Numbered from the stretch's first letter, positions 23,290-63,931 are shown. The stretch is 64,000 bases of DNA from a virus (IMGVR_UViG_3300011008_000004:96001-160000), one strand, 5' to 3'. A program made the numbers and translations. The notes: generated by a model not told the origin, from the sequence alone.

Positions 23290-23892
23290 TTATAATCTCA
23301 CAATAGTCTGCTACTTTACTTTATTAACTCTCACTGTTTCTGCAATAGGCGCACTTTTTGACGCTTTCTTTTTAGTAGATTTAACTACAGGTTGCTCGAC
23401 AACAACTTCTTCTACTTCTGTAGTTTTTCTTATAATTTCGACTGTGCTTCCTACTGGAACTACATATTTTAAAACTTCTGAAAGATACGATAGATCGACT
23501 GTCTCATCTGAAGTTAATTCAACTTTTATTACGCCATTCTCTACATTAGCTACTTCAACTTTACTAACATTATAATATGCATTTATTACGCTAATTACCG
23601 CATACTTTATACTATTTATATTTCCCTTATTTCTTATAACATAAGGAAACAACGTTAAAATATTTCTTAATATATCTGTAGAAATATAATCATTACTTTT
23701 AAATCCAAGTCTTCTTGCTAATAGTGTAATTAATTTATCATCAATAGTTTTAGTGTTGAGTTGCTTTCTAATTTTCTATTGAGCAATTATATTTGAATTT
23801 ACTAATGTATCATATAATCTACATAGTAACTAAAAGTCTCTAGATAAAGTGGTGTAAACTTCAGGTACATTATCTTCTAATTTAAATAACAT
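23290..23892 (-). CDS. Baseplate/tail protein (P2 gpI-like), TAG=Gln
   Basis: Continuous frame from ATG 23892 to TAA 23290; SRDF[TAG]LLCRLYD, LLARRLGF, FPYVIRNKG, YVVPVG. Confidence 0.6.
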
Positions 23893-23905
23893 TCCAATTT
23901 ACCTC

Positions 23906-26900
23906 TTACTTTATAATAGATAAGTCACTAATAACTAAATTAAGAAGTGGATTAGCTGATGTTGCAGCTGAATTATACATCTTAGCCATTACGTATCTAT
24001 TTAATATATGATTTTTATTAAAGAAAGTATAAGGCTGTGTAGGATCCAATATAGGTTGATCTGGTTCATATGTTGGATCAAATTCACTACATTCATAAAA
24101 ATATGTACTAGAAGCGTTATTTAAATTGAAATAACTTTTATCACCTTTATTATCTTCTAAAATCTTTAATAGCGTTTTATATCCAATATCTGATGCCTAG
24201 TACCATTCAGCGTCCACATCATATATAACAGGTTGGTAGTACTCACCAGATACGCCTGTTTCTATATTTACTTCAGCACCATTTGTTTCAGTCAAAATAT
24301 AATTAACATGACCGTCATTATACTTATATCTAAAAATTATAGGATAATATATAGTATTATCATCTACAACGTCTGCAATTAGATATGGAACTTTCACCTT
24401 ATCAGCTTCAAATGATTCAGGTTTAGTACTATACTCAACATCTTCAGTATCAGTATAATTATATACATTATCTCTTAATATGTCATCAGATGATAATATT
24501 ATTTGCTATTGAATACCTATACTTAATAACTTATTAAAACTTATATATTTAGAATAGTCTTCAACGGTATCGCTGTACGTTACTAAATTATAAGCAATTG
24601 ATTTTACTTCAGGTTCATCGCCAGCGCCTTTTTTATCGTATGTAGCACTATACACCAATGTTTGACTATGACTAATATACGTTGGATCACTACTTATAGT
24701 CTATTTTAAATTATATGTTTTAGATGCATCATTTAATATTAAGCCATATCTACCAGTGATATTTAAATCACCAGATTCATACTCTGTGTAATTAGTATCT
24801 GTGGCTGATTTATATTTAATAATATAATGTTTGTCTCCACTATTGTTTATAGCGAATGTAGTTTCATCGCTAATACCAATGTCTCTTAATAAAGCTCTGT
24901 TATCTTCTGCGCCACTTACATCACTAAAATAAATCTCATAGCCACTACCTATTGTGGTTATATCATTTAATATCAATCCTATATATGATGTTTGTTGTCC
25001 AGAACCAGCTGTACTTAATAAATCAGATACACGATATGAAAAACTATCTATAGATTGTAAATCACCATATCCTTGCAAAAAGGCTAGGTCTATAAACTAC
25101 TGCTTATACTCATCTAGTAATTTTTTAGCCTCATCACCTTGCTTTACAGTTGAATTATATACGCTTATCGTTGAACCTTCACCTACTATCTCAAATTCAC
25201 TTGGTACGCTGTTGCTATATGTAATTCTTATGATATAAGAACCTGTAGGTATATAAATAGATTTATTAGCACTGCTCATTGATAAAAATGCTTGTAGCAA
25301 CTACTTATCACTAAAATATAATTTATCATAGTCTACAGAATTTGTTGGAACATACACACAATCATACTTTACTTGAGATAAAACTGCAATCTAATTAGTA
25401 CCTATTGATACCGCAGATGCCGCAGTTTCAGTCATATCTAAGTTGAAATTTAATCTTATATACTTATCAGTTAAATCTTCAATATAATCTCCAGCTTGTG
25501 CGTCTTCTTTAGTTTCATATAGATATATATGTTCTGAATCAGCTAACTTATAAACGACATTCTTTTTTAATTTTCTGTTTCCTACACATTTATAATATAA
25601 ATAATTAGAGTATATAACATCGTCTTTATATAACGTTGTCCAAATGCTTAGCTGTTCATTAGATTGAATTTTAACTGTTGTACTATTACCATAAGCTATA
25701 CTACCACTACTTCTAGTAAAACATCTAGAAGATATTATAGCATTATCATCATATCTATATACAGGTTTACCACCAACTACTTCATACACATACTTAACAG
25801 GCAAACTATTATAATTAACTTTCTTGTAATCGTCTGGTAGTTCACGAGAACTATCAGTCATATCAGTATAATTCTAACCAAATCTAATATCTAAACCTTT
25901 ATATCTAGTAGACCAAGGCGTTATGCCTGCTAATATAGATCTTTTCATTATGTCTAATACTTTAAAGTAACTATTGAATAAATCATTGTCTACTTTTTCA
26001 TAATCATCATTAGCAATAGGTTGCAATGCTACATATTGAATTCTATTATCAGCGCTCTTTATAGTTTCAACTAATTCACCATAGTCGGGCATTTCACCAA
26101 AACCAAGTTGTCTAGCATTAAATCTAGCCCATAAAGCTTTTACGATATTAGTCTTAACTTCATTAGCATCTATCTATGATACCTTATTATTTAAGTATAT
26201 TTGACCTTCTAAATCGTATGTAACAATGATAGGTTCACCGTTAAATTGACGTTCATGATTTAAAGATTTAACATTTTTTATCGATTTATTTATAACTGAT
26301 GACGCATCATCTACACCTATACTATCTTGATAATCTTTTAAATATTCAAATGTGGCATCAAAATTCTTTAAAGATTCTACACTTACAACTGATTTTAATG
26401 GGAAGAATCTAATAGCATATGGACTCATTGTAGAAGTGTCTACACTATCTTCATCTTTTGCATTACTTTTAAGAATGTCTACATGAATTTTGTTTTCAGC
26501 ATCAAAACTTTTAACTAAATAAGACTTGTACAAGTCATTCGTTCTATCAGATACTTGAATATTTGAAACTATGTTATTATTCTGAGAATCTTTATATTCA
26601 TATAAATAGTTCTTATAATCTAACAGTGAAACTAATGTATCAAAAACATTCTTAACTTTATCGTAGTTAAGATTCATTTCATCAATAGTCATAGGATCTA
26701 AACCATTCATTGTGCCACTTAAATTAGTGATATATGTAAATAGATCATTTAACTTTATAGCGTTAGATTCAACATCAATAATATCTAATCCCTCAGGATC
26801 TTTTGCATTATCATTACTAAAGAATTGAGAAATTGTTTTAGCGGTTACGTTGCCATTTAAACCACTGGACTTTATATATTTAATGTATAAACCATCTTTA

Positions 26901-27709
26901 ATTAACGTACCAATATCATCTGGGAATTGAATATAACAAGCATTATTAACTGCATCTACACCGAATTTATAAACTAATTGACCAGATAATGCTTGAGATA
27001 AGTTATCTATTGGCTTCCACTTTAAAGTTAAGCCTGATTCAGTTGAATATGTTATATCACTAAAATCTTGTTCAAATGAAATAAATATACCATTTTGAGC
27101 AATATTACTTTCAGCAAAATAAACTCTATTTTGACTATCTAAATACTCAGCTGTTATGCAATCATCACCATTTACTTCTAAGTTCAATGCCACGCCTTCT
27201 ATAACAGGCATTATTTGTCTCTAATCAACATCAGTGAATGTTAATGAAGTTAGACCAGTATAGACTGTTTGTTGTTCATTATCACTAAATTGAGAGAACA
27301 TAGGAATCTGTAAATTAGCATCGGCTATAATCGCTGTGCCATCTCCATTTTCGCCAGTTTTAACCTTTGTAGCAAGCCCATTTCTCTATAAAGTTAAATT
27401 GGTTGTAGCACTTATGTACCAATCTGGATAGTAACCCATTGTGTTATAAACATCATAAGCACTTCTTAACTGCGTTAAAGATTGAGGAAATAATTCTAAT
27501 ATATTTTTATCAATATTATAATTTAGTTTATCAGTCATTATAGCTGATTCTTTCAATAGAACAGCTAAAGGGTCTGACTCATTAGCTTCACTTGGAACCC
27601 ATTTATTAGTAAGATTAGGAACTAACTTAAGAATTTCAGTCCATAAGCTTTCAAAATCTTTATTTATAAATGATATATTTGAAGCATTTTTATCGTTGTT
27701 ATATATCAT
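23906..27709 (-). CDS. Large baseplate wedge protein (gp6/J-like, about 1267 aa, many TAG=Gln)
   Basis: Seven ORF-track fragments (27386, 26174, 25874, 25391, 25097, 24701, 24197) share one frame and each ends in TAG. N-terminus INKDFESL...ESDP; YIQFPD; SSGLNGNV. Confidence 0.75.
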
Positions 27710-28077
27710 AATTCCTCCGTATTAAGCATATTTATACTGTAATTAATAAAACTATAATCTAGCATGTTTTGAGCTTTAATATTTACATACACATTCTTGC
27801 CTTCAGATGTCACTGAAATATCTTTTCTTTCTACACGTACTTGAGGTAGAAATAATGATATCGCTGTGAACACATCGTCAATAACTAAATCTCTAAGTAC
27901 TACATTATTTCTTTCAAAAAATAATTTCTATAAGTTAACGCCGTAATAAGGATCGCCTAATAAAGTCTTTTTAAATGACTTTAGCAACAAAGCCATATTT
28001 TGCTTTGTTGCATCTAAATCTTTAATGATATTGGTTTTATTATTAGACAGCATGTCTGGAAATTTCACAGCATTCAT
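27706..28077 (-). CDS. Baseplate wedge subunit, gp25-like (one TAG)
   Basis: MNAVKFPDM...LLGDPYYGVNL[TAG]KLFF...FLPQV; translationally coupled to both neighbours. Confidence 0.75.
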
Positions 28078-28454
28078 TATTGATTTACCTTATCAAATAT
28101 TTGTTTATACGTAAGTTTACCTAAATTGACTTGAGTACTAGTATTTAAGTTTTCTTCTATATTTGCGCTCTTTAAATTAGCTCTAACTTTATAGTCATCA
28201 TTTTTAGAATTATCTAATTTTAGATAACCTATAATTATAGGCTTACCGTTATCATCATCTTCAAAAGCAACTATAACTATATCGCCTATTTCATAATCTA
28301 TGTTAAAACCTGGTAAGCATAATATTGTAGCCCAACTTAAATCTTCATCAGCTGTAGAATGTGGGTCATTAGCTATGCCATCAAAAATAGGTATTCTAAC
28401 TCTTATTTTACTAGATTCATAATCTATTTTATTTATAATAGCTCTAGTTATCAT
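28077..28454 (-). CDS. Baseplate spike/gpV-like OB-fold protein
   Basis: KIRVRIP...WA...EIGDIVIVAFEDDDNGKPIIIG. Confidence 0.7.
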   Translation of the reverse strand: MITRAIINKIDYESSKIRVRIPIFDGIANDPHSTADEDLSWATILCLPGFNIDYEIGDIVIVAFEDDDNGKPIIIGYLKLDNSKNDDYKVRANLKSANIEENLNTSTQVNLGKLTYKQIFDKVNQ

Positions 28455-28474
28455 TGCACTCTCTTTTTTATATT

Positions 28475-29743
28475 TTAATTTAGCTCGTCGTCTTGATTTA
28501 TACGAAGTAGAGATAGCGTTGTAGTATAACCTCTTTCGTCTATCTTATCTTCCTACTTAGTTATAGCATATATACCTGAACTAGTGTGTTTTCTACCAAA
28601 GAAATACACATTAACTCTAACATATGTCATTAACATTACTGCTCTTAATAAACCTTTTAAGGTGATAGTTGCAGTAATAGGATATTGAGTCATATTAGAC
28701 CACCAAGACTTATCAGCTTCAGTAGTTAACATTAAACTAGATGATTTAGTCAGTGTAGGAGAATATACTTGTGTCATATCTCCAGAATCATCTATCCTAT
28801 ATACGAAATCTGATTGATTTATATTCTATGAAAAATCATATAATATCGCATAAGCTTGTTCATTCTATATCTAAAAATTAGATACTATATCTTTTCCAGG
28901 ATAACCTACATCTATAGTGTAGTAATCAATTGATGAACTACTGTTTATATTTGTAAGTAATTTAGATACTTTAAAATAAGGGCCATCAAGCAATCCTGAC
29001 GTGTCATCATAAACAGTTAGAACGTACTTACTAGATTTCTTAATAGTATTATTAGCATCTCCAGAACTTGTCATACAAGATACTAAATAATTAAGATAAT
29101 CTAATATTGTAATATTTTTCTTAGCTTGAATAGTTACTTCTTTATCATCAGCTTCGATTAAACCTAATTGTAATATCTAATCTTCATTATGCATCCCATA
29201 AAATATGTCTTGCAAACCATATGTTTTATTAAATAAGATTTGTTTAATTACATCACTCGGTTTCTTACTTGAATATTTAGGAAATGTATAAGTACCAGCA
29301 CTTAAATTTATAGCAGTACTTACAGCTGATATAGTGTATGTTATTTTTGAATTAGCCGCGTCTAATGATTCACTAACTTTTGTAATTATGCCTTCTTCTT
29401 CTCTATACATATAAGTAGGTGTAGCACAATCACCATATGTAAATACGATTTTACGTGATTGATTAACTGAGCTTAAAACTCTATCAATCATATTAGGATC
29501 ATCATTCTATGTTATAGGATATACTAATGATAGTGAATATCTATTTACTGATCCATTTACTTTTGTTACAGTTAGTGACTATATATAATTTGGATATGTA
29601 ACTTTAACAGCTGAGTACAACTATTTATTCATCTCAACTGTTACATTTTTTCTACTATACATACCAAACGTATAATTACCAATTTTTACAGATATATGAG
29701 GTGCTTCTACACGCGTTGTTGTTGAAAGTAATGCAACAGACAT
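28475..29743 (-). CDS. Baseplate hub-like tail protein (422 aa, TAG=Gln)
   Basis: Fragments 29177, 28871 and 28553 are in one frame from ATG 29743 to TAA 28475; C-terminal SSGIYAITK[TAG]EDKID..GYYTTLSLLR. Confidence 0.65.
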
Positions 29744-29745
29744 AA

Positions 29746-30063: not shown

Positions 30064-30073
30064 ATAAAGCACC

Positions 30074-31851: not shown

Positions 31852-31882
31852 TTATAATCCTCAATGTAAATCACGTAAAAAA

Positions 31883-34333: not shown

Positions 34334-34594
34334 TTATTTCTTCTTAATCGCTTTTTCCATCGCTTCATTTTGTCTAGTTATATCGCGATTTATAAACTCT
34401 ATTATATACTTTCGTTCAGTTGGTGTCATTAAACCGGTATCACTATAAGATATATTAGCATTTTTAGATATAAAATATCTATCTTCTACTAATTGCTTAA
34501 ATCTCATAGGACCATATGGCTTCTCTACGCCATTCTCATCTTTATACGTCTTTTGGTCTAAAAAATTCAGAGGAGAAACGAAAGGTTGTGGCAT
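34334..34594 (-). CDS. Small tail-assembly chaperone partner; start uncertain
   Basis: YFISKNANISYSDTGLMTPTERKY; overlaps the end of the upstream chaperone in another frame. Confidence 0.55.
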   Translation of the reverse strand: MPQPFVSPLNFLDQKTYKDENGVEKPYGPMRFKQLVEDRYFISKNANISYSDTGLMTPTERKYIIEFINRDITRQNEAMEKAIKKK

Positions 34595-35303
34595 AGTCTA
34601 ACCTACATCTAGGATTACTGCAAGTCTCTGTTATTGCGTTATTAATCCCCACCTGTAAATTTAATCTATCTAATGCATTCAAAATCTTATTAGTATCTTT
34701 CATGTTTAATTTCTTTAAGAAAGCATCTAATTTAAGATTATCATAGTGATTACCATCTACTAGTCTGATACCGTGTCTTAAATCAACTAAGAAATCAATG
34801 TTAACTTTACTACCTGGATTTCTATCCTTGAATTCATCAATTTCTTTATCTATCAAATCACATTCTCTTGGTGTTTTATACTTTAAAGTTAAAACATGAC
34901 CACTTTCAGGTAATTTAACTTCTAATAAATCATTAATTTCGTCTACATCTAATGCTAAAACTTGTAATTGATCTAAATTTAATTTAGATACGTTTATTTG
35001 TCCACAATAAGGACATATAGACTGATTTAAATAGTCATTGCCATATGTAATTACTCTTAATTTATATAATAAATATAAATAATCACCCATATGCATGTCA
35101 TAAGTAGACATTCCTATATCGTCTATTATACATCTATCTATAATATTACACAGCTACTTATATGGGGTCTCAGTATTAGATAATCTTAACATCTCCTCTT
35201 CAGTAGTCATAGATCTTAATTCAATAGTAGGAGTCTTTAATTCACTATAAAATTTACCTTTAGTAGGTAATGTTGCGCTCTCCGCTATAGTTATTCTATC
35301 CAT
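34542..35303 (-). CDS. Tail/baseplate assembly chaperone (T4 gp26-like, one TAG)
   Basis: LPTKGKFY..ELRSMTTEEE, LRVITYG, CPYCG, LPESG, FFRP; TAG at 35154. Confidence 0.7.
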
Positions 35304-36043: not shown

Positions 36044-37438
36044 TTAACCTTCAGTAATTGATGCTGAACCATTTTCTAAATTGATATAAATATCAAAATC
36101 TTCTACAGGTTCAATTGGAATTAGTCTAATTTTACAAGCGATTGTAGCTTTCTTATCTGTAGGAATTCTTACAAACTTGTAACCAGCTAATTTACCACTA
36201 GCAACCATTCTATCTAAAAGTTCTTGAATCTCTATTTTATAATTTGTCCAAGTAACATCATTATTACTTTCAAATGTATTATTTATAGATGCGTTATACG
36301 CTCTCTTAGCAATATCACAAACCATAAATCTTATACTTAAAAAAGATGTAGCTTTTAATCCTGTTCCTGGATTATTTTTAATTAATGTTCTATCACCCCA
36401 GATAGTCCAACCATAAGGTCTTACTTTACAAATGCCATTATAAGAAATGCCGTCAGATGTTTGAATATCATTATCTAAGGTGTACTTATTCATTTTAATT
36501 AAAGACGTGTTATAAATATCATTAACAACACCCCTTTGAACACCTGAAACACTATCCCATCTCTTATTAGCATTATTAGCTGCAGCTAATTTTACTAAAT
36601 AAGTATATGAACCAGGCATTGTGGTATTATAATCCCAATCTACGAATGAAGCGCCGTAAGATAAGAAATTACTGTTTAAATTTGCTAAACCTGATTTTAC
36701 AGTTATCATACTGTCTGAATCTTTAGTAGGATAATCAATTAGTGCTAAACAATCTTTTCTTACGCCACATATGTTTAAAAGCATTTCAGCTAAAGTACTA
36801 TCAAAACTTTGAGGTATAACTGCAGGAGCACCCATAGTTAAAATCTCTACATTATAAGCATTATAGTCTTTTAAGAAATCTAATTCAGTTGCGGCATACG
36901 CACCATCAGTTCTAATATAATAAATTACACCTAAACCTGCTTCTAGTAAATCTTTAGCATATTTATATGATTTATCATTTCCTTCTACTAAATATTTTTT
37001 AATATCAGCACCTTTAGGAATTACTAAACAATTATTTTCATCTACAGGATTTAATACAATGTATTTATATATTGTAAACGTTTTAGTCACGTAATTATAT
37101 ATAATTTTATATTTCAAATTACCACTAGTGCAATCTTTCTCGACATTAGCGTCTATATCTTCATCAATAGTGATTTCAGCTTTTGTTTTAGATATAACTA
37201 TTTTATCTGCGCCAACTTCTTTTATGTAATATGTAACATTTGGAACTACATTAGTATCTTTAAATGTAACATACTTTTTTGCATTATCGCCAGATCCTTC
37301 TGTATACTCTTCAACATCTAAACCTAAATCAGGTTGTGCAGATAACGCAGAACAATTTCCTGGAACAAACACATTTATTTCATCGCCATTGTAAGTTGAA
37401 CCAGTAGCGTCATTTTCGTATATAGTAATTTTAGGCAT
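36044..37438 (-). CDS. Contractile tail sheath protein
   Basis: RKDCLALID, SGVQRG, IWGDRTL, FESNNDVTW, PIEPVEDF; no TAG. Confidence 0.88.
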   Translation of the reverse strand: MPKITIYENDATGSTYNGDEINVFVPGNCSALSAQPDLGLDVEEYTEGSGDNAKKYVTFKDTNVVPNVTYYIKEVGADKIVISKTKAEITIDEDIDANVEKDCTSGNLKYKIIYNYVTKTFTIYKYIVLNPVDENNCLVIPKGADIKKYLVEGNDKSYKYAKDLLEAGLGVIYYIRTDGAYAATELDFLKDYNAYNVEILTMGAPAVIPQSFDSTLAEMLLNICGVRKDCLALIDYPTKDSDSMITVKSGLANLNSNFLSYGASFVDWDYNTTMPGSYTYLVKLAAANNANKRWDSVSGVQRGVVNDIYNTSLIKMNKYTLDNDIQTSDGISYNGICKVRPYGWTIWGDRTLIKNNPGTGLKATSFLSIRFMVCDIAKRAYNASINNTFESNNDVTWTNYKIEIQELLDRMVASGKLAGYKFVRIPTDKKATIACKIRLIPIEPVEDFDIYINLENGSASITEG

Positions 37439-40394: not shown

Positions 40395-41216
40395 TTATTC
40401 CTCACCATTCTAATCATCTAGGTCATCTAATGACATCTAATTAGGATCTGGTTTTATCTTTTTCTAATAACGATACGTATTACCTGGTTTAAATTGAGTT
40501 CTAGTTCTTCCATATTCATTTGATGTATCAATATCAGACTTACTAGTATCTAAAGTATCTTTATTATCTAAATCGTCTATGCTTAATTGAACAGGTTCTT
40601 CATATTTCTTTCCAAACACTGCAGGATATATAACATCTGCGTATTGTTTGAATCTATTTTGTTCAAACCAGTGTATATAGTTATTTATAACACTTGCAAC
40701 TTTTATTAAAAAACTAGTATTAGATAATACTAGTGCCGTGTGCTTACAGCAAGGTCCTAAATCATTATTAGGATTAGTTATCTTTGCAGGTCTATTTTCT
40801 TTTGGTCCTGTAATAATATCACTTACAGACTGCCAGTACGCGAAACGATATTTAGCATCAGGACAATTACATCTAATATAGACATTATCACTATTAAAAG
40901 CATTCATTAAAGCTCTTAAAATGGACTTTAATTCTAATTTATCGTTATTCTACTTAACTTCTCTTTTAATCTCATCTAAAACAGATCCAAAAGAAATTGT
41001 TACTAAATAATCATCTGTTTCACCAACTACTGGGATAGATACGGTTAGAATATTCTTTCTAAATAACTAATCCATATCTATCTCATTGAACGATCTTACA
41101 GTATTTGCAACTCTTGATCTAGTCCTCTTTTCATAACGACTTAAACCATCTTTTTCTTTTTTACCTCTTTTAGATTTAGAAATGAGTTCACTTCTTCTAT
41201 CTTCTAAAATAATCAT
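40395..41216 (-). CDS. SWIM-type zinc-finger protein (273 aa, TAG=Gln)
   Basis: CNCPD...CCKH motif; frame open from ATG 41216 to TAA 40395 with TAG readthrough. Confidence 0.7.
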
Positions 41217-51170: not shown

Positions 51171-52502
51171 TTAAGCAAGAGTCTTAATATTAAGACCAGT
51201 GTTCTTGATTTCAGTAAAGTCTTCGTAAATCTTACCAGCAACTAATAAGTTCTTGTTTAAGATCTTAAGGTCATATAAAGTTGACCAACCTTGTGTCATA
51301 TTACCGTCAGCGAATCCAAGTAATTGAGTTGGAACGATAGGCATATAAGGAGCATAAACTGCTGCACTTGAAGCCATGTCAGAACCATTAACACCAAATA
51401 CGAATTTACCAGCTTCAAGAGCAGGAGATACGTAAACTTTAATACCACCGATTGTACCACACATATAAGGACCATTGATTGCACCTACAGGAGCTGCAGT
51501 AAATCCTTTGCAGAATTGAACAACAGGAAGAACGTCAGAAGCAATTAACATGTATGTAGGAGCAAATCTCTTTGTTCTATCATAGATGATTCTTGTTGCA
51601 TCAGCGATAACTTTTGCAAATGCTTCATATCTTTCAAACATTGTTTCACCAACTCTTTGAGCGATATTGAATTTTAATGTGTTATCTAATTCAGCATTAT
51701 CAGCTAAAAGTTGAACAACTTCAGAGTCGATTTCATAAGATAATTGACCTACAGCTTTTTCAGCTAATTGGTCGCCAAGATCGAAACCATAATCTGTTTT
51801 AGCTTGGAAAGCAGCAAATTGAGAGAAGTAAATAGCAATGTGTCTAGCTTTTGCAACTAAAGGCATTGTCTTCATTTGTGCTTTAATAGTAGGAAGATCG
51901 TTTTGAGGAACGATTTGGTTGTCATATACATATGCAACTTTAACTACGTTTGTAGCACCACCAAAATCGATAGTGCCGTCTTTAGCAACGGTTACGCCTG
52001 CAACTTCTGTGCCATCACTTGCGAAAGCTTTGAATGTTTCAGGAATAACAGGTGTCCAAACAACTTTTGTTTGACCTGCAGTTAAAACTTCAACAACTCT
52101 AGCGCCAGTGTAGTCAGGGTCAACTTTACCAAGACCAAATGGACTATTGAATAAGTCACCTTGTTTAATAGCACCTTTGTTACTTCCAGCAACATATTCA
52201 ACATAGTTGATATAACCACTGTAAGAAGTCATAGGATGAACTATTACGATATCATGTGCTATTAAGTTAGGTAATGCAACTGTAACTAAGTTAAGTGCAA
52301 ATTTCTTATAAGCACCTAAATCACTTCTTTGAGTTCCAACAGAACTTTCAAAAGCTTCGTTAATGCAACGATTTACGTTTTCAAGGCACTTAGCAACTAC
52401 TAATTTTTTATTGTCGCTCATCTTAGCACCATTATGTGCTTGCATGTGCATTTTTTCAGAAAGAGCGAGTCTATTTTTATAACTTTCGAATAAAGTATTC
52501 AT
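51171..52502 (-). CDS. Major capsid protein (T4 gp23-like)
   Basis: PNLIAHDIVIVHPM, AKAR, LSYEIDSE, YAPYMP; strongly biased codon usage; no TAG. Confidence 0.92.
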   Translation of the reverse strand: MNTLFESYKNRLALSEKMHMQAHNGAKMSDNKKLVVAKCLENVNRCINEAFESSVGTQRSDLGAYKKFALNLVTVALPNLIAHDIVIVHPMTSYSGYINYVEYVAGSNKGAIKQGDLFNSPFGLGKVDPDYTGARVVEVLTAGQTKVVWTPVIPETFKAFASDGTEVAGVTVAKDGTIDFGGATNVVKVAYVYDNQIVPQNDLPTIKAQMKTMPLVAKARHIAIYFSQFAAFQAKTDYGFDLGDQLAEKAVGQLSYEIDSEVVQLLADNAELDNTLKFNIAQRVGETMFERYEAFAKVIADATRIIYDRTKRFAPTYMLIASDVLPVVQFCKGFTAAPVGAINGPYMCGTIGGIKVYVSPALEAGKFVFGVNGSDMASSAAVYAPYMPIVPTQLLGFADGNMTQGWSTLYDLKILNKNLLVAGKIYEDFTEIKNTGLNIKTLA

Positions 52503-52533: not shown

Positions 52534-54174
52534 TTATTGATTCATTTGTTTATTAGCGAGATTTATTAGACTTTCGTCTACAGTATCATCATGCCAAGCA
52601 TCTCTCGTTAAAGGCTCGACAGATTCAGTTACTTTAAATCTAACATCTTTACGATCATTAGCAAATGGTAACTTGTTAACATTAATTTGATAGTCTCTAA
52701 TACCTTCACAAATTTTATCTATATCTGCAAAAGAATAATTTTCAGACAATCTATTTTTAATTTCATTAGCTGAAACTCTTAATTGTCTTGCCTTAGAATC
52801 TATATATCTGTCAACAGCTGTATTAGCTATTTTTTGATATTTCTCTGCAATAGATTTCATTTTGCTAATCTTATCAGAGTATTCTTTACTCTTAATGATA
52901 GCATTTTTCTTAGCTTCCTCTAAATCTTCTTTTAAAGAATTATTGGTTGCTTTAATACTTTCAACTAACTTTCTTTCAGTAGCTAAACTTTCTTTTAAAC
53001 TATGTATAGTCTTATCTTTAGATGCGACTGACTCATTTAAAATAGTTTGTTTACTTGCTTCAGATTTTTTAGCTTCAAGCATTTGTCTAATTTTAATATT
53101 CTTTTGATTGATAATTCTATCTTTTGTCTTTAATTGTTCATTAAGTTCAGCAATAGTCTTATCTTTCTCTGATATATCTTCACTAGACTGTTTAACTTTA
53201 CTTTGAAGATTAACAACTTCAGATCTTAAAACTTTAGAATTTTTACTTGATTCACTTAATTCAACTGTAGAAGATTTAAATCTTCTAAGTTCTTCTTGCA
53301 ATTCTGCTTCTTTCGCATCGTGAACTGATAGCTTTTCTTGTAAGGAAATAAGCTAATCTTTTAAAATTTTGTTTTGTCTTAATTGTTCTTGCAATTCTTT
53401 AACTACTTCTATTCCGTTATCATCGGCTACAGGTTTGTCATCGACTGCTTCAATCTTCTCTATATTCGATTCAGATTCAACTTTCGTTTCTTCTGATTTT
53501 TCGACTTTTTTATTTTCTTCTAAATCTATACCTATTTCTTTTAAAGCTTCAATCATTACTTTTTTATCATTTTCATTTTTAGCTTTAGCTATAGATTCAG
53601 TTAAAACCTTTTCTAATGTTTTGCCTTTCTTTTTAGTTTGTAAAGATTCTGTAACATATTGTAAACGAGCTTCTTTAACTGCTGGAATCAATACAACATC
53701 AAAACATTCAAAATTATATGTATCAGGATCTACTGATTCTTCACCATTATAATCTTCAATAGTTTCACCAGTTCCTCTTGAAGAAATACCTACAGTACTA
53801 CCATATTGACATAATGTATTTAATATATTGCCACATGGTGTATCTAATATATCTAAAACAGCATAAAGCTTATTGTCTTTACCACGTTTAGGCATTTCAG
53901 GCATTGATACCGCTACTTTTTCGATATCAAGCTCTGTTCTATCTTCAGGGTGTCCTAATTCACCATAACATACTTTATTTTTAAATTTTTCCTGAGTTAA
54001 TGGATCACTAAAAACCTTTTCCCATAATTGCTCAGAATATCTACGTCCATTTCTTGTAGGAAAAGCTATATCAGCAACAGGACCAACTAAACGAGCAAGT
54101 ATTTTTCTAGCTTTCATTTCCTCTGCAGATAACTTTTTATATTCAAATTTAGGTGTATTTAAACTTTCTAACAT
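52534..54174 (-). CDS. Prohead protease (gp21-like) fused to a coiled-coil scaffold through one TAG at 53353
   Basis: TRNGRRY, GELGHP, LDTPCG, GISSRGTG, FDVVLIPA; the downstream coiled-coil ORF is in frame. Confidence 0.85.
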
Positions 54175-54238: not shown

Positions 54239-54366
54239 TATGGCTTTATAAGCTTATTTTAATATTTATGCAATATGATTAATTTTATTTCCGGAAGTCG
54301 TTTATATATTAATTTAAAATATATAATTATTATATAATATATTAATATAAACACTATTTCCGGAAG

Positions 54367-54822: not shown

Positions 54823-54868
54823 GTGATATATTTCTCCTTTCGTATCACGAATTGGTTTTTAATTATTT

Positions 54869-56794
54869 TTAGAAATTACTTGAATCAGTAAAATCTAAAT
54901 TTAAATCAGCTGGTCTTGGAAGTGGTTGAATTGAGTCATTAGTTTCAACTGGCCCTTCTATTTCAACTGGTTCTTCTATATTTTCTTCAGGTTCAGACCC
55001 TATGTTATCAACAACTTGATCCATAGGCTCATCTATACTCATATTTAAATCTAATGAATCATTGTCGTCTACATCACTAATCTCATTAGTAGTATCATCT
55101 TCAGATTTAGGTTCTTTTTGTTCTTCTTTTTCAGCGGCCATAGCATCTATAGCGTCTTGAATAAGCTGCATTGCTTCACCATCATTAACAATGCCTGACA
55201 ACAATGTTTTAGTAATCTGTAATTTAGTAACTTCGTCTGTAATGCCTTCTAATAATTGCATAACATCTCTTGTAACAGATACTTTATTCTGTAAGTTACT
55301 ACGTCTATCAACTTCTTCTTGAGTTGTAGGTGCTACCATATGTAATTCAAATTTATTTACGTATTCAGTTAAACCAGCGTCTATACACATTAAGTTTATA
55401 GCATCTGTTAATGCTTGCATTAAAGCATTTTGATTATGTTTAACTGTCTTAGCATATCTACTTGATTGTAATGCTAATGAAGATCCGCCATTAAATCCTG
55501 CAGCATCATCAGTATCACCTAAGAATTGTTTAGGAATTTTTATACCTGCGTATAATTTATTCTTAAAATAGTTAATATCATCTAAGCCTTTAACGTTAGG
55601 ATCACCGCCAATTTCTTTAGTGTCAATATTTCCTACGCCACCATGTGTAGGAATATAAACGTTATTTTCAGTAGGACCAGCATTATTATATTCAGTTAAT
55701 GAACCACCAGCATTTATAGCTGTTTTTTGCTCCATTAAAGATTTAATACCTTGTAAGTGTGGTCCAACATTTTCTTTTGGCATATCACCTACTTCAACTT
55801 GAATAACTCTTACAATAGATGATTTAGTTACTCTGTTAAGTAGCATTGAATTTTCAAGTAAATTCATTTCACGCCATATTTTATATTGTGAATAAAATAC
55901 TGATTGACCACGTTTTACAGTGTAGTTTAAATCTTTTCCTTGAGTACCATCTAATTGATCATTATCAGGTATAAAAATACTAACTTCTTCAGGAGTTCTA
56001 GTTGTATTATCTTCTAAAACGGCATGAACAAAGTCTCCTGCTCCGTGTAAATCAACGTCATTTTTATTGAATCTATATTTAAACATTGAAGAATACATAC
56101 CTTCATTAGCTCTTAAATCAGCATTAGTGCTATTTAAGTCAGCTTCTACGTAAGCGTATGTTTTACCATGTTTAACTAATTCAAATATTTTTGCAGGATT
56201 AGGCTACATTTCAACATAACCAGTGTAATGATCATTGGGTGAGTATGCAATTATATTTACGTTTTCATTTAATTGTTTTCTTTCTTCAACTTTATTACCA
56301 AATAATTCATCATCTTCATAATCAGATTGTCTATATAATCTTAAGTATAGGTCACCGTATTTACATAGACTTAGCATCCACTTGTATGCATTCTTATCAG
56401 CATTCATTGTGTCTAATAAATATGTTACATATTGCGTTACGTTGTCATCTGCGGATTCACACCAAATTATTTTACCGCTGTCATTATATTCAGTACCGTC
56501 TTGTGCGTATATTTCTAAAGCTGAAGCAATACGACTATCTTCACACATAGTGTCAATCATTTGATACATCTAGTCTCTGCGTTGAGATACACTAGTAAAA
56601 GACTATATAGAACTAATATCTAAAACTTCAGTTGATCCTTCATTTACAATATTAGTTAAAATAGTATTTTTAGTATCAATACCTATATTAGCCTAAGGCT
56701 TAGGCATTGCTTTAGGCTTCTTATTATAAATATTTTTATTATCTACAAATGCAGAATCTTTCTCTGTATTTAATACACTGTCGTTATTTGGCAT
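54869..56794 (-). CDS. Portal protein (T4 gp20-like, 641 aa, 3 TAG)
   Basis: LCKYGDLY, LLENSMLLNRVTKS, VEVGDMP, DDINYFKNKLYAGIKIP; TAGs at 56693, 56570 and 56204. Confidence 0.88.
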
Positions 56795-56807
56795 TTAAAT
56801 TAACCTC

Positions 56808-58826
56808 TTATAAAACGATAATACCTTGAGATAAATACGCTCTATTCCAATCTTCTTCACTTATCTCTTCTTTTTCTTGAGCAATGCTATTATACTAACC
56901 CATTGTTCTCTGTAGTTCTTCTTCGAATTGTCTATTCATCTCAGCGACCTAAGATGATTGACTTGCAGAAGAACTTACTTGTTTAATAATATCAAGTGTC
57001 TCACCGTAATCAAATGCATATTGCTCTGCAAATTTGCTAGCTGTGAATACTGATCCACATACTGCGTCGAGTACGTCCTTGTGTCCATTTGCAGGGTGAT
57101 CTACTTTACCACTATTTATATTTCTTTCAATCTAAACAAATTCATCAAATAATCGTTCAGATTTATACATTACAAATCTTTTCTCATACACAGAAGATTG
57201 TAAATACTAATATGGTTTGCATATATGATCACTATCAACTCTATCAACTGATAGAATTTCACAATCAAAACCTTCTGCTATTAGTTGTTGTCCAGTGTCA
57301 TAAGATTGGAATGTATCGTATGTAATTTTCTTTATCTTAAATCCGACATTTTTAAGCCATCTTATAAAATTTCTATTCTTTTCAAATGAAATCTATCGGC
57401 CTTTAGGTGCTTTTATACTTGTACTAAAAGCTAATCTAAAACTTAAATCTCTTGCCTATTGATTTGGATCTGTACTAACTTTTTTACCTATTATCCAAGT
57501 TCCAGCAATACCAGTCATATCCCCACTTACTGACATATCTAAATGAATAAATAAAGGTTTACTCATTAGTTCTTTTGGAATATTCTGCATGTCAAAATAG
57601 TTATAATACTAATCAACATCTTCAGAACCATTACCCGTTTCTATTATGTCTGGAAATGGGTTTTTAAAGTCAGGATTTATAGCTTCTGTAACTCTTTCAG
57701 CTGACATGTACTTATTAACAGATGCACTTGATATACCAGCGTAATCGCATAGCATTCTCTCTAAGTCTTCTAACGCTTTTGCTTTAAAATCTATAGGAGC
57801 TGCTATTACTCTATAACCTTTATCTTTATAGAATTGTATATCAGCATCATTAGGTATAACCAAACTTGCCTTATACTTATCACCTACGCCAATATAAAAT
57901 ATTTCATTACTATATGTGCCTTTAGGTTTAACTTCCCAAACAGGTTTATCTACAACTAAAGTATTACTGCCTTCTGTTTCCTATAATGTTTTTATATACT
58001 CTTCCATAAATGATTGCTCACTACGTTTAGAAGAAGCAACACATAACATTGTAGGATTTTTACCCTCATGAACGAATCTGGTTAACATGCCGCCTATAGC
58101 TGTATCAATCATATTCTTTGCTTTTTCTTTCTGTTTATCTATATCTTGATTTCTAATAAAGCTGATTTCATCAAAAAATGCAAAAAATACAGGTTTACCA
58201 ATTACATCGTCTGCTTGAGATCCAATAACTATATTTATTGGATCAGGAGGAACCCAGTAAGGTTGATTATTTCTCTAAGTTATACTTCCTTTTGACATAA
58301 ACCAAGGAGACATCTATATTGTTTTCTAAAACTTACTAATAGCGATCTCTTCTGATAGCGCTAATTTAATATTCATAAAAGCAAATATTATTTTTTCAGT
58401 AAGTTTTATATGATAATAAGATAATGGATCTTTTAAACACATTAAACGATACATTAAATATGTGCCTACTGCACCACAAGCCACTTCAGATTTGCCAATA
58501 CCACGAGCGCCAGACTCAAGTAATGTGTTATAATCAGTATCTATATTATTAGGAAATAATTTCTTTAATATATCTAACCAAAAAGGATACAACTTTAATT
58601 TGCCACTAGCATCTTTCCAAGCTTTTCCTAAGAATCTATCATCTGTTAGAAATGTTTCTATGTCTACAGGGATTTCTTTAAAGTCGTCATAAAGTAAATC
58701 ATCAAAAGTCTATGACTAACCTTTATCTGACATCTCTCCTAAAATCTACATAACCATAGATTTTTCTTGTTCAGATAAATCATTTAAGTTATTTAATTGT
58801 GATATATCTAGTTCATTCGACATCAT
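56808..58826 (-). CDS. Terminase large subunit (about 672 aa, about 13 TAG=Gln)
   Basis: GARGIGKS Walker A, FAFFDE Walker B, IHLDMS and HKDVLDAV nuclease motifs, all in one frame broken only by TAG. Confidence 0.9.
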
Positions 58827-58844
58827 CGACCTGAAATTCCTATT

Positions 58845-60284
58845 TTAATTTAGTAGTTTCCCAGATGAGTAATATCTATTTATCTTATCTAGTACCTCAT
58901 CAGATGTGTAATCATTATAGTTGTACGTTTTATATTCACCATTTGTTTCAGTATGAATTAATACTGTTTGTTTATTTGAGAACACAAAATCTAACCAAGT
59001 TAACAACGAGTATAATTGAGTTACAGAAGGTTTATGTTTAGGTAAAACTATGTATGGACTTATCCAAGAATCTTTACCGCCTCTGCTTCTAACTCTTATG
59101 CAATTTAATTTAACTTCTAAAAATTGACTGCCATCAGCAAAATCTAAATCTTGATTTTTAATATACTTCTTTTTCATTAAGTATTTATCTATATCTAAGT
59201 GATTGTTTGATTTTAAAAATTCACCTGTAGGTAAAATATAGTATCCACCATAAGCTGGTTTATTTGTTACCTCAAAATTATTTTCTAAATCTTGTAAAAT
59301 AGTTTCATCATCTACTTCGCTTGATAAATCAATCTCATTATAGTAGCTTTCTTTTAATATCAAATCATCTGGATATTTTATGTCATTTACATTTTGAACA
59401 ATTAAAACAGGCTATGGTTTATCATACCCACACAATTCACCTGCAACAATCATTCTATGACGGCCTTCTTGACCATCGTCATTATAATTTAAAAAACAAA
59501 TAGGAAATTTTCTATGATATCTAATTATTACATCTCTTAAATGTTCTATAATATTTTCATCATTTTTAGTTTGCTATATTTGTTTTTCTCTAGTGCTATT
59601 AAATAATTTAGCACATTCATCAAAGTACTAGTTAGGCGTCATCATTATGATAGAACCAATAACACCTTTTCTATCTCTCATATATTTAGCATCATGTAAT
59701 ATATCATCATAATAGCTTACGCCTGTTTTGTTTTTGTCAAATATGTCGCATGACTCCACATTAGAAGCTGAAGTACCATAATCATAAAATTTCTACTCAC
59801 TATCTAAATAAGCTTCATTTTGTGGGACTTTATTTGTTTTAAAATAATACTTTAAATCTTCAATAATAGATTTAATTGAAATATGTTCATAATCCCAAAA
59901 ATCTATTTGATAACCATTTTTATCTGAAATTTGAATTGAAAAATATTGTCTATTGTAACCTAACTGTTTTATAACATTTAAAAGTGTATTATATTGAGCA
60001 TTTGTAGGTTCTAATATCAGTTCGATACCCGGTATTTCTGGCGATAATCTAATATTACCTTTATTCATAAATGCTAATAAACTTTCAGGACCTTTGTAGT
60101 ATAATTCACCATCAAAAGCATCGCATATGGATCTATGATCTATTATACGTCTATTTTGACCACCTGAAAAATCTAACAAAGAGCCATTAATCGTTATAAA
60201 AGCTGCTTTATTAGCATTAGCAGTAGTTCCAAATATTTTTATAGCATTCTATTCTATATTTTCATTCAAATGTATTAATTTCAT
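58845..60284 (-). CDS. Multi-domain hypothetical protein (479 aa, TAG=Gln) with a ParB/Srx-like QEGRHR motif
   Basis: ORF pieces 59793-60179 and 58845-59363 are in frame from ATG 60284. Confidence 0.65.
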
Positions 60285-60330
60285 GTTTTTATTATATAAT
60301 ATACAAAAATTGTGATATACAAAATCAAAA

Positions 60331-60363
60331 GGGAGATTTCAGCACTTTTAGCTAAAATCTCCC
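60331..60363 (-). terminator. Terminator after the holin-like genes
   Basis: GGGAGATTT...AAATCTCCC hairpin with a U-tract on the minus strand. Confidence 0.65.
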
Positions 60364-60393
60364 AAATAATTTCCTAATTAGTTAAAGTGCAAC

Positions 60394-60777
60394 TTATTTA
60401 TTTTCAACCTTTAAAGTATAAATTGTACTTTCAATTAAGCTCTTTAAGTAATCACTCATATCACCAAAATTCTTAGTAATATAATCTATAGCTTCTGGTG
60501 CTAATTGATGTTTTATTTTATTTAAGCAAGCTTCTAATGCTGCTTTTTGAGCATCTTTATCAAACTTACCTTCTTCTTTTAGTTTCTCAACATATGTTTG
60601 ATATGTTTCTTTAACAGCATTTGTTGTTATTGAGACTATATTCGTTAAATAACCAGCTGCTTTTTTATCAGCTATTTTAGTACTTATCCATTGACTAAAT
60701 TTTGTAACTGCTAGTGTGCATAAGCCAGTTATAATAGTTCCTAATGCTGCAAGTAAAATTTGAACAATTTCATTCAT
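60394..60777 (-). CDS. Holin-like protein (LL-H type)
   Basis: One N-terminal TM segment; AVKETYQTYVEKLKEEGKFD...IESTI. Confidence 0.65.
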   Translation of the reverse strand: MNEIVQILLAALGTIITGLCTLAVTKFSQWISTKIADKKAAGYLTNIVSITTNAVKETYQTYVEKLKEEGKFDKDAQKAALEACLNKIKHQLAPEAIDYITKNFGDMSDYLKSLIESTIYTLKVENK

Positions 60778-60792
60778 CTTTCAATCACCTCT

Positions 60793-61209
60793 TTATTTGT
60801 TATTTTCTTTAATAGGTAGATTTTCCATTTCTTCAGCCCAATAATTTACATATTCTTTAAAACTATTTCCACCTAAATTTTCATAAGTTTCCATTAATTG
60901 TTTAAAAGTAGATTTATCACCAATATCGGCATAACCTTGTTTTCTACATCTTTCTAAGATTGCTTTCATATTACATCTAGATTCTAACACGTCACTCGCT
61001 AATGATAGATTAGTCTTTTCCTCTAAAGCATCTATTTTTTTAGATATAAGATCTATCTCTTCTTTTATGACTTCCCTCATTTGCTCTTGTTTTTCAGATT
61101 TAACTCTATCTTTAGCTTTTTTAGTATTAGACTTGATTGCACACCATAGTTCTTTTATGACTAGACTTGCAATACCAGTACTACAAATAATAGTCAACCA
61201 TAGTGGCAT
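60793..61209 (-). CDS. Single-TM membrane protein, holin/lysis-associated candidate
   Basis: N-terminal TM segment, coiled coil, YENLGGNS motif typical of Firmicutes-phage lysis-region proteins. Confidence 0.55.
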   Translation of the reverse strand: MPLWLTIICSTGIASLVIKELWCAIKSNTKKAKDRVKSEKQEQMREVIKEEIDLISKKIDALEEKTNLSLASDVLESRCNMKAILERCRKQGYADIGDKSTFKQLMETYENLGGNSFKEYVNYWAEEMENLPIKENNK

Positions 61210-61254
61210 TGTAATATCTTCCTTTTAAATATAAATTTTATTTAATCTTAATCA

Positions 61255-61842
61255 TTACTTATATAATTTAGCTCCAATTTTAGACGCAGATGCTTCCACC
61301 CAAAAATCATCATAATATACATAAGCGCCATTTTCATATTTTGGAATTTCTATGGTTATCAACCATATAAATATAATTATAAAGTAAGCAGCTATACAAG
61401 CGCCTATTATCTATAAAAATAATAAATCAAATAAAATTCCAAGAATTATGCATGCAGCACTTATTATCCAAAATATGGTACAAAGAATTAATGAATAAAG
61501 TGTTTTACTTCTCTATGTTTTAAACTCTCTGAGCCAATATCTTGTAGCACTCGGTATGCATACTATGAAAGGCATTAAAGGACCTAAAATTATATTCTGA
61601 ATACCGTGTCCTGATTCATGTTGTTTTAAATGTTTTCCAGGATTTTTACAACATATGAAAAAACATCCAGCTTCAAAACCACCCCAATTTTCACCAACTT
61701 CAAAATATATGTTCTAATAAAATCTTTGGGGTTTATGTCCCGTTATCAATAAACCTAAGGCACAAAAACAACCAAATAATGTCATAATTACACCCCAGGT
61801 AAATGATAAAATATAGAATAATATAATTTTAATAGTTTTCAT
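61255..61842 (-). CDS. Multi-TM protein with an HExxH zincin motif (195 aa, 3 TAG)
   Basis: LSFTWG, HLKQHESGHGIQN, YDDFWVEASA; absent from the ORF track. Confidence 0.65.
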
Positions 61843-61858
61843 ATATAATCCTAAAATG

Positions 61859-61886
61859 ATCCTAGAGGCTTTTACACCTCTAGGAT
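61859..61886 (-). terminator. Terminator after the tail fibre gene
   Basis: ATCCTAGAGG-CTTTTACA-CCTCTAGGAT hairpin. Confidence 0.6.
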
Positions 61887-61900
61887 TTATTTATGTTTAA

Positions 61901-63931
61901 TTATTGAATTTCGCCATCGTCTATAACTATATCAATAACTGTATAGTTTGTAGCACCATTTAATTTTACTTTTAATTGATTGTTACCAGTACCATCTGAT
62001 ATATATGTTATATCATCAGCTGCTTTTGTAATAGTACCATTACTATCTATGCTTAAGCCGTTACCATTGGTAACTTTAACAGCTCCAGCTGTTCCAGTTG
62101 AGCCTAAAGCCATTGCAACGACACCATTACTATCTATGCTTAAGCCGTTATTATTAGTAATTTTAACTGTACCTAATGTTGAAGTAGTAGCTTTAAACGC
62201 TGAGTTAGAATGATTAGTCCAAGTAGGTGCTGTATTTGCGCCATTGGATATTAATACTTGATTAGATGATCCACTTCCAACAGGAGCATAAATATTGAAT
62301 CCGCCAGTTATACCTAATTCATAGCCATAACGTCCAGTACCAAAATCATTTTTAGGTGTTAAAGTGAAATTTACATCAGATCCAGTATCTGCAGTACCAT
62401 TTATTTTAATTGCAGGGGCTGTACCATTATATCTAAATTCAGCGACTGGGATTTTTACATCATCAGGATTTTTATCATCTGAATATGCGATATTTAAAGT
62501 CTGTTTATGATCAGCGTAGTCATTTTCAGTAGTTTCTATTTTTGATATACCACGTCCATTGATTATTTTAAATACTTTTGTATCTTTTACATATTTACTA
62601 CTATCATCTTTTTGATCGTACTCAATATCATACTCATTCACACCAGAAGATGCATCATTGTATGTGCCATTAAGTTTAACTTCTTTTATACCACGTCCAA
62701 CAATATTATCTAAAGTTATATCCAAACCAAATTTAAGATTTGCTTCGTCTAAATAAACAGTTGTACTACCTGTAGGACTCCAAAGATTTGTTCCTGGATT
62801 CGCTACATTATATGTTACATCTACATCTCTAGCTATTGGAAGGAAATCACCCCTAGTAAATGAACCAGTTGGACCGGTTGGGCCTGTTGCACCTTGAATA
62901 CCCTAACCACCTTGAGGGCCTTGTGGACCTGTAGCGCCTGTGTCACCTTTTACACCTTGTTCGCCTTGAGGACCAGTTGGACCTTGAATACCCTGAGCGC
63001 CAGACATGTCTGTTAAAAATGCAAAGTGTGCGGTATCTTTATCTAACAATGTGGTATTATCTTTTCTTACATATAATCTACTATTTTCTTCTTGTTCAAC
63101 AGAGTTAGCTATTAGAACGAATTTACCTAGATTCACATTAGCATAATCAGCTTCCATCAATTCAACAGAAGAGTATGTTTTATAAATACTAAATCCTTCG
63201 CCTTTATCACCTTTGTCGCCTTTGGGACCAGTAGGACCTTGATCACCTTGAATACCTTGAATACCTTGAGGACCTTGAGGACCAGTTGCACCTATATCGC
63301 CTTTTTCACCTTGAGGTCCGGTTGGGCCAGTAGCACCGGTAGCGCCGGTATCACCTTTTGCTCCAGGAGCGCCATCTTGGCCAGGAACGCCTTGAATACC
63401 TTGAATACCTTGAGGACCTGTAGCTCCAGTTGGACCTGTAGCACCATCTTGGCCATTTATGCCATCAGCTCCAGCGGGGCCTGTTGGACCGGTTATGCCA
63501 TCTTGCCCATCTCTACCGTTTGTACCAGGAGCTCCAGTCGCGCCTGTTGCACCAGTAGCACCTGTAGGTCCTGTTTCGCCTTGAATACCTTGGCCACCTT
63601 GAGGACCTTGAGCTCCTGTAGGACCAATTTCACCTGCAGGACCTGTTGGACCTACTTCGCCTAATTTTTTCCACTCAAAATTAGTTGGAGCTACAGTTAT
63701 AGCGCTTTGTATAAAATTGTCTAATATATATAAGCAGCAATCCTCTTGAACAGACACTATCATACCTTTATATATAGGATAGTATATGTTACCAGCACTT
63801 ACAACTGCCCAAGTGCTTGCCGAACTAAGATCAGATATACTATTAACAGTTTGTCTAGCGTCAAATGGACTAGCTTGTGTTAAATCATACGAAGTATCAA
63901 TAGTTAGGGCAAATTCATCTAATTTTCCCAT
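61901..63931 (-). CDS. Collagen-repeat tail fibre (676 aa, one TAG at 62903)
   Basis: Gly-X-Y runs; the two ORF-track pieces are in frame; duplicated GLSIDSNG unit. Confidence 0.8.
62869..63654 (-). repeat. Collagen-like Gly-X-Y coding repeats
   Basis: Recurrent GPTG/GPQG/GIQG units in two blocks. Confidence 0.9.

Follow-up and report, generated by a model that had tools for sequence, protein, structure and literature searches.

The stretch IMGVR_UViG_3300011008_000004:96001-160000 (64,000 nucleotides, hereafter the window) raises the question of how a virus reads virion genes that are interrupted again and again by TAG, which amino acid enters at UAG, and what allows some of its genes to do without this codon. 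The window corresponds to bases 96001-160000 of a single virus record of 214,257 bp (29.7% GC) with matching ends, classed in IMG/VR as having direct terminal repeats and as 100% complete; the genome is that of a closed, complete 214-kb T4-like phage, uncultured, and the window is its block of virion genes. We report that UAG is very probably translated as glutamine in this phage, with a proposed late switch of code that would involve phage-encoded suppressor tRNAs and a phage-encoded release factor 2 (RF2), as judged from sequence comparisons.

All long open reading frames (ORFs), in the window as well as in the genome, lie on the minus strand. Coverage by minus-strand ORFs of at least 100 amino acids (aa) was computed under genetic code table 11 and with TAG, TGA or TAA taken as sense. 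For positions 23290-63931 it was 64.4% with table 11, 95.6% with TAG as sense, 64.5% with TGA and 70.1% with TAA, and the longest ORFs grew from 526, 464 and 443 aa under table 11 to 1267, 811, 676, 672 and 641 aa when TAG was read through. For the genome the corresponding values are 0.70 (table 11), 0.855 (TAG as sense) and 0.71 (TGA control). A preliminary description of the window had held that the terminase, portal and other genes are single frames broken only by TAG and had proposed coding density as a check; the rise is seen in the block and in the genome. Of the 39 ORFs of the block, 24 contain in-frame TAGs, 99 altogether, and all 39 end in TAA or TGA, which extends what had been said of the genes then inspected. 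The range given for the recoding, 23290-63931, holds, and four further recoded ORFs lie to the left of its start, at 8811-9428 (three TAGs), 9488-9973 (four), 12169-13065 (eight) and 21078-22742 (one).

Across the genome, 86 of 276 ORFs (≈31%) carry TAG in frame, with 273 such codons counted, and out of frame TAG is rarer than TAA and TGA. That all 276 read-through ORFs stop at TAA (194) or TGA (82) is built into the definition of the ORF set; 15 TAGs lie at most 10 codons from an ORF end, where about 12 would be expected under an even spread; this is no excess, but a few true TAG stops are possible. The first tenth of the ORFs holds 57 TAGs compared with about 22 in each other tenth, and some of these early TAGs are artefacts of over-extended ORF starts. 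Among the Gln-type codons of the block, 99 are TAG, 349 CAA and 52 CAG, i.e., the TAG share is 19.8% and exceeds that of CAG. The genes restored by read-through include those for the large terminase, the T4-type portal, the prohead protease and baseplate proteins, and annotation with table 11 would truncate or split 24 virion genes in the window alone. The block and its main genes are the following (window positions).

23290..63931, minus strand: late (virion) gene block, written in part in a code with TAG as Gln; 99 in-frame TAGs in 24 of 39 ORFs
61901..63931, minus strand: collagen-repeat, fibre-like protein, 676 aa, a single TAG; Pfam Collagen, 102 bits
56808..58826, minus strand: large terminase, 672 aa, 14 in-frame TAGs; from the fold search and the alignment of relatives
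54869..56794, minus strand: T4-type portal, 641 aa, four in-frame TAGs; Portal_T4, 138.9 bits (Pfam)
52534..54174, minus strand: prohead protease with a C-terminal extension, 546 aa; Peptidase_S77, one TAG joining two table-11 ORFs
51171..52502, minus strand: major capsid protein (gp23 type), 443 aa; TAG-free, 16 of 16 Gln codons CAA
40395..41216, minus strand: 273-aa protein with five TAGs, carrying the pair QLSIDDLD / [TAG]MSLDDLD
36044..37438, minus strand: tail sheath, 464 aa; TAG-free, five Gln codons, all CAA
35437..36024, minus strand: tail tube (gp19 type), 195 aa; TAG-free, one Gln codon, CAA
34542..35303, minus strand: T4_baseplate family protein, 253 aa, one TAG; 46.9 bits
31883..34318, minus strand: 811-aa protein with 10 TAGs; tape-measure candidate from its position alone
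28475..29743, minus strand: 422-aa protein of the baseplate region, eight TAGs, without a family match
27706..28077, minus strand: candidate gp25-like baseplate wedge protein, one TAG; under the Pfam cut-off
23906..27709, minus strand: 1267-aa protein with 10 TAGs, fibre or baseplate region, no assigned function

Several of these labels had been proposed in the preliminary description, and they fared differently. The terminase and the portal were borne out (by Foldseek and Portal_T4, respectively) and the baseplate label in part, since one protein matches T4_baseplate with 46.9 bits and the match of the gp25-like protein falls below the cut-off. The label "tape measure" has position as its sole ground, as the 811-aa protein has no match in Pfam, PHROGs or the PDB; between the tail tube gene and this downstream ORF lie two others, at 34542-35303 and 34334-34594. 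Family searches did not find a SWIM domain, the former label, in the protein at 40395-41216.

The 672-aa terminase ORF has a weak terminase match in PHROGs, and sequence and profile searches against the PDB gave no match. Its AlphaFold model (predicted local distance difference test score 78.6) matches the large terminases of HK97, PhiV-1 and T4 (gp17) in Foldseek with E-values from 6e-15 to 9e-12, and the predicted model of the read-through protein has a complete fold. These data bear on the view that the TAGs are real stops and the affected genes pseudogenes, split genes or artefacts of assembly or sequencing, with no recoding at all. The formal table-11 reading, and nothing further, speaks for it, and we regard it as extremely unlikely: the 273 TAGs stand in frames free of TAA and TGA although these two are commoner out of frame, essential single-copy genes would all be broken (the terminase 14 times and the portal four times), homology runs on across every TAG, and the genome has tRNAs with the anticodon CUA.

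Which amino acid is inserted was approached through relatives. A search of IMG/VR with the terminase and the 811-aa protein yielded 47 related loci. The 28 terminase relatives are 44-66% identical to the phage protein; because none of them (0/28) has an in-frame TAG and table 11 leaves their flanks fully open, they represent standard-code controls. Five related genomes (G001-G005, 148-218 kb) were taken whole, and the 276 ORFs, with TAG masked as X, were compared using tblastn with these genomes and 40 loci, which resulted in 129 aligned TAG columns in 40 genes. Gln is the top residue at these columns, with 24.8% of the cells compared with 30.2% at true CAA/CAG columns and a background of 3.9%, so that the homologues are enriched for Gln where the phage has TAG; the remaining profile (Lys, Glu, Ser, Asp and Asn) resembles that of true Gln columns, and stop codons are absent from all relatives at the 129 columns. 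Using substitution profiles from the same alignments and giving each column one vote, Gln had the best likelihood, followed by Lys (-29 nats relative to Gln), Glu (-52) and Ser (-67), and a fitted Gln/Ser mixture gave a Gln weight of 1.0 with a support interval of 0.92-1.0. Specifically, the terminase TAG columns 167, 171, 406, 478 and 540 are CAA or CAG in nearly all 28 relatives, and Q167 and Q478, both TAG here, show no variation across 11 sequences (10 relatives among them) aligned with MAFFT. Against the standard-code homologues, TAG as Gln is thus supported as the best-fitting reading by a wide margin.

The preliminary description had read the amino acid from two repeats within the window itself, and both are present. 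The collagen heptad Q-G-G-Q-G-I-Q at 63601..63581 has a near-copy at 62914..62894 with TAG as its fourth codon (62905..62903), the Y position of a Gly-X-Y triplet, where the first heptad has CAA; both heptads belong to one ORF, that of the 676-aa collagen-repeat protein. Likewise, QLSIDDLD (40589..40566) and [TAG]MSLDDLD (40439..40416) share the ORF 40395-41216. The positions that had been given are valid on the plus strand, and the quoted sequences are reverse-complement reads, the genes being on the minus strand. These repeats indicate that TAG is translated and that the residue is compatible with Gln, and taken alone they are weak evidence for which residue it is; the assignment that had been drawn from them stands through the homologue alignments.

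No tRNA or Rfam family was found within the 64-kb window and no release factor gene either, in agreement with what had been reported for it. The rest of the genome had been suggested as the place to look for a CUA-anticodon tRNA, a release factor and a tRNA synthetase. ARAGORN predicts 11 tRNAs in the genome, two of which have the anticodon CUA (both also matched by RF00005) and lie outside the window, and an RF2 gene is present; neither a gene of the glutaminyl-tRNA synthetase (GlnRS) family nor PylS was found in the phage genome.

Genome c[2606-2680], minus strand: 75-nt tRNA(CUA), RF00005 60.7 bits, normal class I
Genome c[163136-163233], minus strand: 98-nt tRNA(CUA), RF00005 54.2 bits; 3.2 kb past the right end of the window, i.e., upstream of the virion block along the direction of transcription
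L048:1414-2514 (genome about 76.1-77.2 kb), minus strand: release factor 2, 366 aa, TAG-free gene; TIGR00020

ARAGORN labels both CUA tRNAs "tRNA-Pyl", which is its default for this anticodon, and pyrrolysine at UAG is therefore to be considered. Without PylS in the genome, with both tRNAs fitting the general tRNA model end to end and having a normal GG-containing D loop, and with TAG columns that are Gln rather than Lys-like, we consider the chance of this to be negligible.

The phage RF2 scores 450 bits with TIGR00020 (prfB; cut-off 370) and 254-264 bits with the prfA models, below their cut-offs; its SPF and GGQ motifs lie in the same frame. By these scores and motifs the protein is an RF2 and therefore does not read UAG. 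Its gene runs uninterrupted in a single frame and lacks the programmed +1 frameshift site that bacterial prfB genes commonly contain. The nearest bacterial RF2 genes (57-61% identity) are those of a Catabacter sp., a Christensenella sp. and an uncultured Clostridia metagenome-assembled genome (MAG), and all three genomes have a true GlnRS and an RF1 above cut-off; because of the latter, these bacteria are taken to treat UAG as a stop. In a host of the Catabacter/Christensenella type, UAG would thus be a stop codon and direct charging of a Gln-type suppressor would be possible.

The Escherichia coli GlnRS identity set comprises U1:A72, G2:C71, G3:C70, G73, G10, U35 and G36. Both phage tRNA(CUA) genes have U1:A72, G2:C71 and G3:C70, that is, Gln-type acceptor stems; the 75-nt tRNA has G10 and A73, and the 98-nt tRNA U10 (in place of G10) and G73. 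The anticodon CUA gives both tRNAs A36 and not the identity base G36. Among 78 phage tRNAs, the best matches of both suppressors are tRNA-Gln(UUG) genes. The 75-nt tRNA aligns in its acceptor stem, D arm and T arm with tRNA-Gln(UUG) from related phages and from MAGs of Catabacter and Christensenella rather than with the tRNA-Cys of these, and the acceptor stem and G73 of the 98-nt tRNA are identical to those of tRNA-Gln(UUG) of the Catabacter and Christensenella MAGs. A tRNA-Cys was the top BLAST match of the 75-nt tRNA in the candidate host-lineage genomes, from the D arm and anticodon stem only; the acceptor stem and T arm are of Gln type. A known counterpart is E. coli supE, an amber suppressor form of glnV with a tRNA-Gln body and the anticodon CUA, which is charged by GlnRS despite A36; supE is a point mutant of the host and a weak suppressor. 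The 75-nt phage tRNA resembles it in U1:A72, G2:C71, G3:C70, G10 and A36 and differs in being phage-encoded, in having A73, and in being accompanied by the second, 98-nt suppressor with its extra Gln-type hairpin.

This extra hairpin makes the 98-nt tRNA unusual. Infernal assigns it the anticodon CUA and a 24-nt insertion in the variable region, and the insertion forms a hairpin with the loop CUUUGAA, which resembles the Gln UUG anticodon loop. In the panel it is matched best by the G002 tRNA-Gln(UUG), and the anticodon arm of that tRNA aligns to the second hairpin; a BLAST search of the five related genomes with the 98-nt tRNA itself gave no match. Of four pattern scans for suppressors with two hairpins, the first three returned no match, two ordinary tRNA-Gln genes, and 80 loci without a CUA tRNA, respectively, the third pattern being too loose and misfitting the T arm of the query itself. 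The stricter fourth detected two further two-hairpin CUA tRNAs on unrelated IMG/VR contigs (L227:78-173 and L228:5145-5236), in which the loop CUUUGAA is unchanged while the stems differ and still pair; the flanks of L228 are TAG-recoded (coverage 0.63 with the standard code and 0.85 with TAG as sense). A possible, if doubtful, interpretation is that the 98-nt tRNA is "two-headed", with a new CUA arm placed before the old tRNA-Gln arm, and that the spare Gln loop would enable charging with Gln by the host. If true, the spare Gln-type loop would represent an undescribed mechanism of tRNA identity and would explain in general terms why Gln is the residue to which phages reassign TAG. In any case, this suppressor provides a testable lead on how a host enzyme might charge a tRNA that reads a stop codon.

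In the surroundings of the 98-nt suppressor we note a 13-bp terminator-like hairpin just upstream (L051:3265-3295, minus strand), situated between a TAG-free TPR-repeat ORF (L051:3277-4482) and the tRNA, and neighbouring fibre genes with collagen repeats and Mtd_N (tropism-determinant-like) that carry TAGs. Close to the 75-nt tRNA there are two matches below the gathering thresholds (genome 2.3-3.4 kb): a tmRNA-like sequence with intact acceptor and T-arm ends at L052:3096-3431 (minus strand; 39.7 bits, threshold 47) and a YrlA/Y-RNA-like sequence at L052:2334-2442 (minus strand; 41 bits, threshold 69). Infernal also gives an additional tRNA-like match at L052:6139-6213 that ARAGORN does not call.

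How TAG is distributed among the genes has a bearing on when the code might change. The genes for the clamp loader, the RecA-like protein, family A polymerase, primase, DnaB helicase and RF2 are TAG-free. The left part of the window is organised as follows.

461..8814, minus strand: TAG-free part of the replication block with phosphoesterase, clamp loader and RecA-like genes, readable with the standard code
12169..13065, minus strand: NUMOD3-motif, homing-endonuclease-like ORF with eight TAGs, left of the 23290 start
13791..20732, minus strand: TAG-free part of the replication block with family A DNA polymerase, primase and DnaB helicase genes
21078..22742, minus strand: SNF2-family helicase, 554 aa, one TAG, left of the 23290 start

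The NUMOD3 ORF, a neighbour of the DNA polymerase genes, is an exception within a replication block that otherwise lacks TAG. The TAG of the SNF2 helicase is at about codon 110, within the Pfam SNF2 match (residues 95-380). In the virion block, CAA is the only Gln-type codon of the capsid, sheath and tube genes, with 22 occurrences and TAG absent (P about 0.008, given the TAG share of the block). Gln is also scarce in these three proteins as a whole (16, 5 and 1 codons), and low-copy virion proteins use TAG freely. The capsid, sheath and tube genes probably avoid TAG as a leaky codon in the proteins of highest copy number, because suppression would compete with the host RF1 and be incomplete.

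A plausible course of events is that infection begins under the standard code of the host, which would suffice for the replication proteins and RF2. The two suppressor tRNAs would then be transcribed and charged with Gln by a host enzyme, probably GlnRS, upon which UAG in the terminase, portal, baseplate and fibre genes would be read through, with full-length virion proteins arising only after the switch; the added RF2 would maintain efficient termination at UAA and UGA. Here we infer both the timing of gene expression and the charging enzyme. Were the host natively to read UAG as Gln, the phage would simply match it and no early-to-late switch would occur. This is very unlikely, given that only ≈31% of the ORFs carry TAG, that the replication block and RF2 are free of it, that the phage supplies its own suppressors and RF2, and that all three bacterial genomes with the nearest RF2 have an RF1 above cut-off. 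Such a pattern of partial recoding with TAG-free replication genes is what phages that infect standard-code hosts typically show (Borges et al., bioRxiv 10.1101/2021.08.26.457843). With two suppressors, an RF2, TAG-free early genes and TAG-free genes for high-copy virion proteins, the phage offers a compact system for the study of code switching.

Several points weigh against Gln at UAG or against parts of the proposed switch. The alignments trace the evolutionary origin of the TAGs and not the residue that the ribosome inserts today, and the conserved TAG columns comprise seven Gln, but also four Lys, two Glu, one Ser and one Asp. The 98-nt tRNA has a class-II-like shape, and its D arm and anticodon stem resemble phage tRNA-Ser(UGA) (88% identity over 43 nt to that of Xanthomonas phage Xoo-sp15); because of this resemblance and shape, some Ser may be inserted at UAG through this tRNA. 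A promoter scan around it performed no better than on shuffled sequence. The link to a Christensenellales host is a hint, drawn solely from RF2 similarity and acceptor-stem identity. As the holin-like ORF at 60394-60777 contains no TAG, the switch would not gate all of the late or lysis genes.

The points on the residue come together in the alternative that UAG is decoded ambiguously or as another residue, with the 98-nt tRNA charged by SerRS to give Ser or a Gln/Ser mixture, or with Lys or Glu inserted. SerRS recognises a long extra arm together with G73, as in E. coli supD, and the 24-nt insertion of the 98-nt tRNA could be taken for such an arm, in addition to the likeness to tRNA-Ser and the Lys, Glu and Ser columns. 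We nevertheless judge this alternative unlikely. The acceptor stem is Gln-type, with U1:A72 and not G1:C72, and the "extra arm" is the segment that aligns with the anticodon arm of the G002 tRNA-Gln(UUG). Furthermore, Ser, Lys and Glu fit worse than Gln by 67, 29 and 52 nats, the mixture puts all weight on Gln (lower bound 0.92), and the residue profile of the TAG columns, including its other residues, mirrors that of true Gln columns. Translation of UAG as Gln accounts for these data best.

The relatives themselves do not share one code. G001-G005 use the standard code and none of them has a CUA tRNA; G001, the closest large relative, has no RF2, and TAG ends 4 of its 212 plus-strand ORFs. 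Three loci (L016, L017 and L043) carry TGA within the terminase frame at conserved Trp positions, namely columns 70 and 83, which are Trp in 19-25 other relatives, and only if TGA is taken as sense do the flanks of L016 and L017 become open (coverage 0.84 to 0.96). By this evidence L016, L017 and L043 are predicted to read TGA as Trp, and the clade mixes code 11, TAG as Gln and TGA as Trp. The standard-code and TGA-recoded cousins thereby constitute an independent control for the amino-acid assignment.

Alternatively coded gut phage clades described before include Lak, crAss-like, Jade, Sapphire, Agate, Garnet, Amethyst and Topaz phages (Borges et al., bioRxiv 10.1101/2021.08.26.457843). In the scheme put forward in that preprint, the genomes are low in GC, standard-code relatives seldom use TAG as a stop and a suppressor tRNA(CUA) is acquired; recoding concerns several structural modules of ≈200-kb genomes, the clades mix codes 11, 15 and 4, and among TAG-recoded genomes RF2 is listed only for Lak and Agate phages. 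The likeness to known recoded gut phages drawn in the preliminary description is apt, since the present phage shares TAG as Gln, low GC, scarcity of TAG stops in a standard-code relative (G001), a suppressor tRNA(CUA), recoding of the structural modules and membership of a mixed-code clade with the phages of this scheme. It differs from them in having two suppressors, one with two anticodon-type hairpins, and in its TAG-free capsid, sheath and tube genes. RF2 is present as in Lak and Agate phages, yet the genome size of 214 kb is in the range of Jade and Sapphire phages, to which it is likened by size and code mix alone.

For crAss-like phages with code 15, TAG-to-Gln recoding is reported as validated by metaproteomics (Peters et al. 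2022, PMC9523058). They share TAG-to-Gln in phage genes with the present phage and belong to an unrelated podovirus lineage of Bacteroidota, and they have protein-level proof; Gln at TAG in the present phage is predicted from sequence, which is a further point to be set with those that weigh against it. The phAss-1 group is described as a large uncultured gut phage with a 136-kb genome and in-frame TAG in dozens of ORFs, including structural ones (PMC10607447); by this description it is like the present phage in its many ORFs with TAG, at 136 kb compared with 214 kb. The phage is thus a solid additional example of the published TAG-to-Gln strategy and not a new kind of system, and as such it is clean, complete and internally consistent.

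Finally, two minor observations concern the terminase relatives and the genome at large. The terminase loci of L016 and L017 (3001-6009), L024 (3001-5333) and L026 (3001-5638) exceed the others in length by 0.3-1 kb. The added sequence in L024 and L026, near columns 213-218, contains TAA and TAG in frame and points to insertion of an intron or intein at one site. The strand asymmetry is extreme throughout the genome, with essentially all genes on the minus strand and with 82,422 T, 68,114 A, 39,161 C and 24,560 G.

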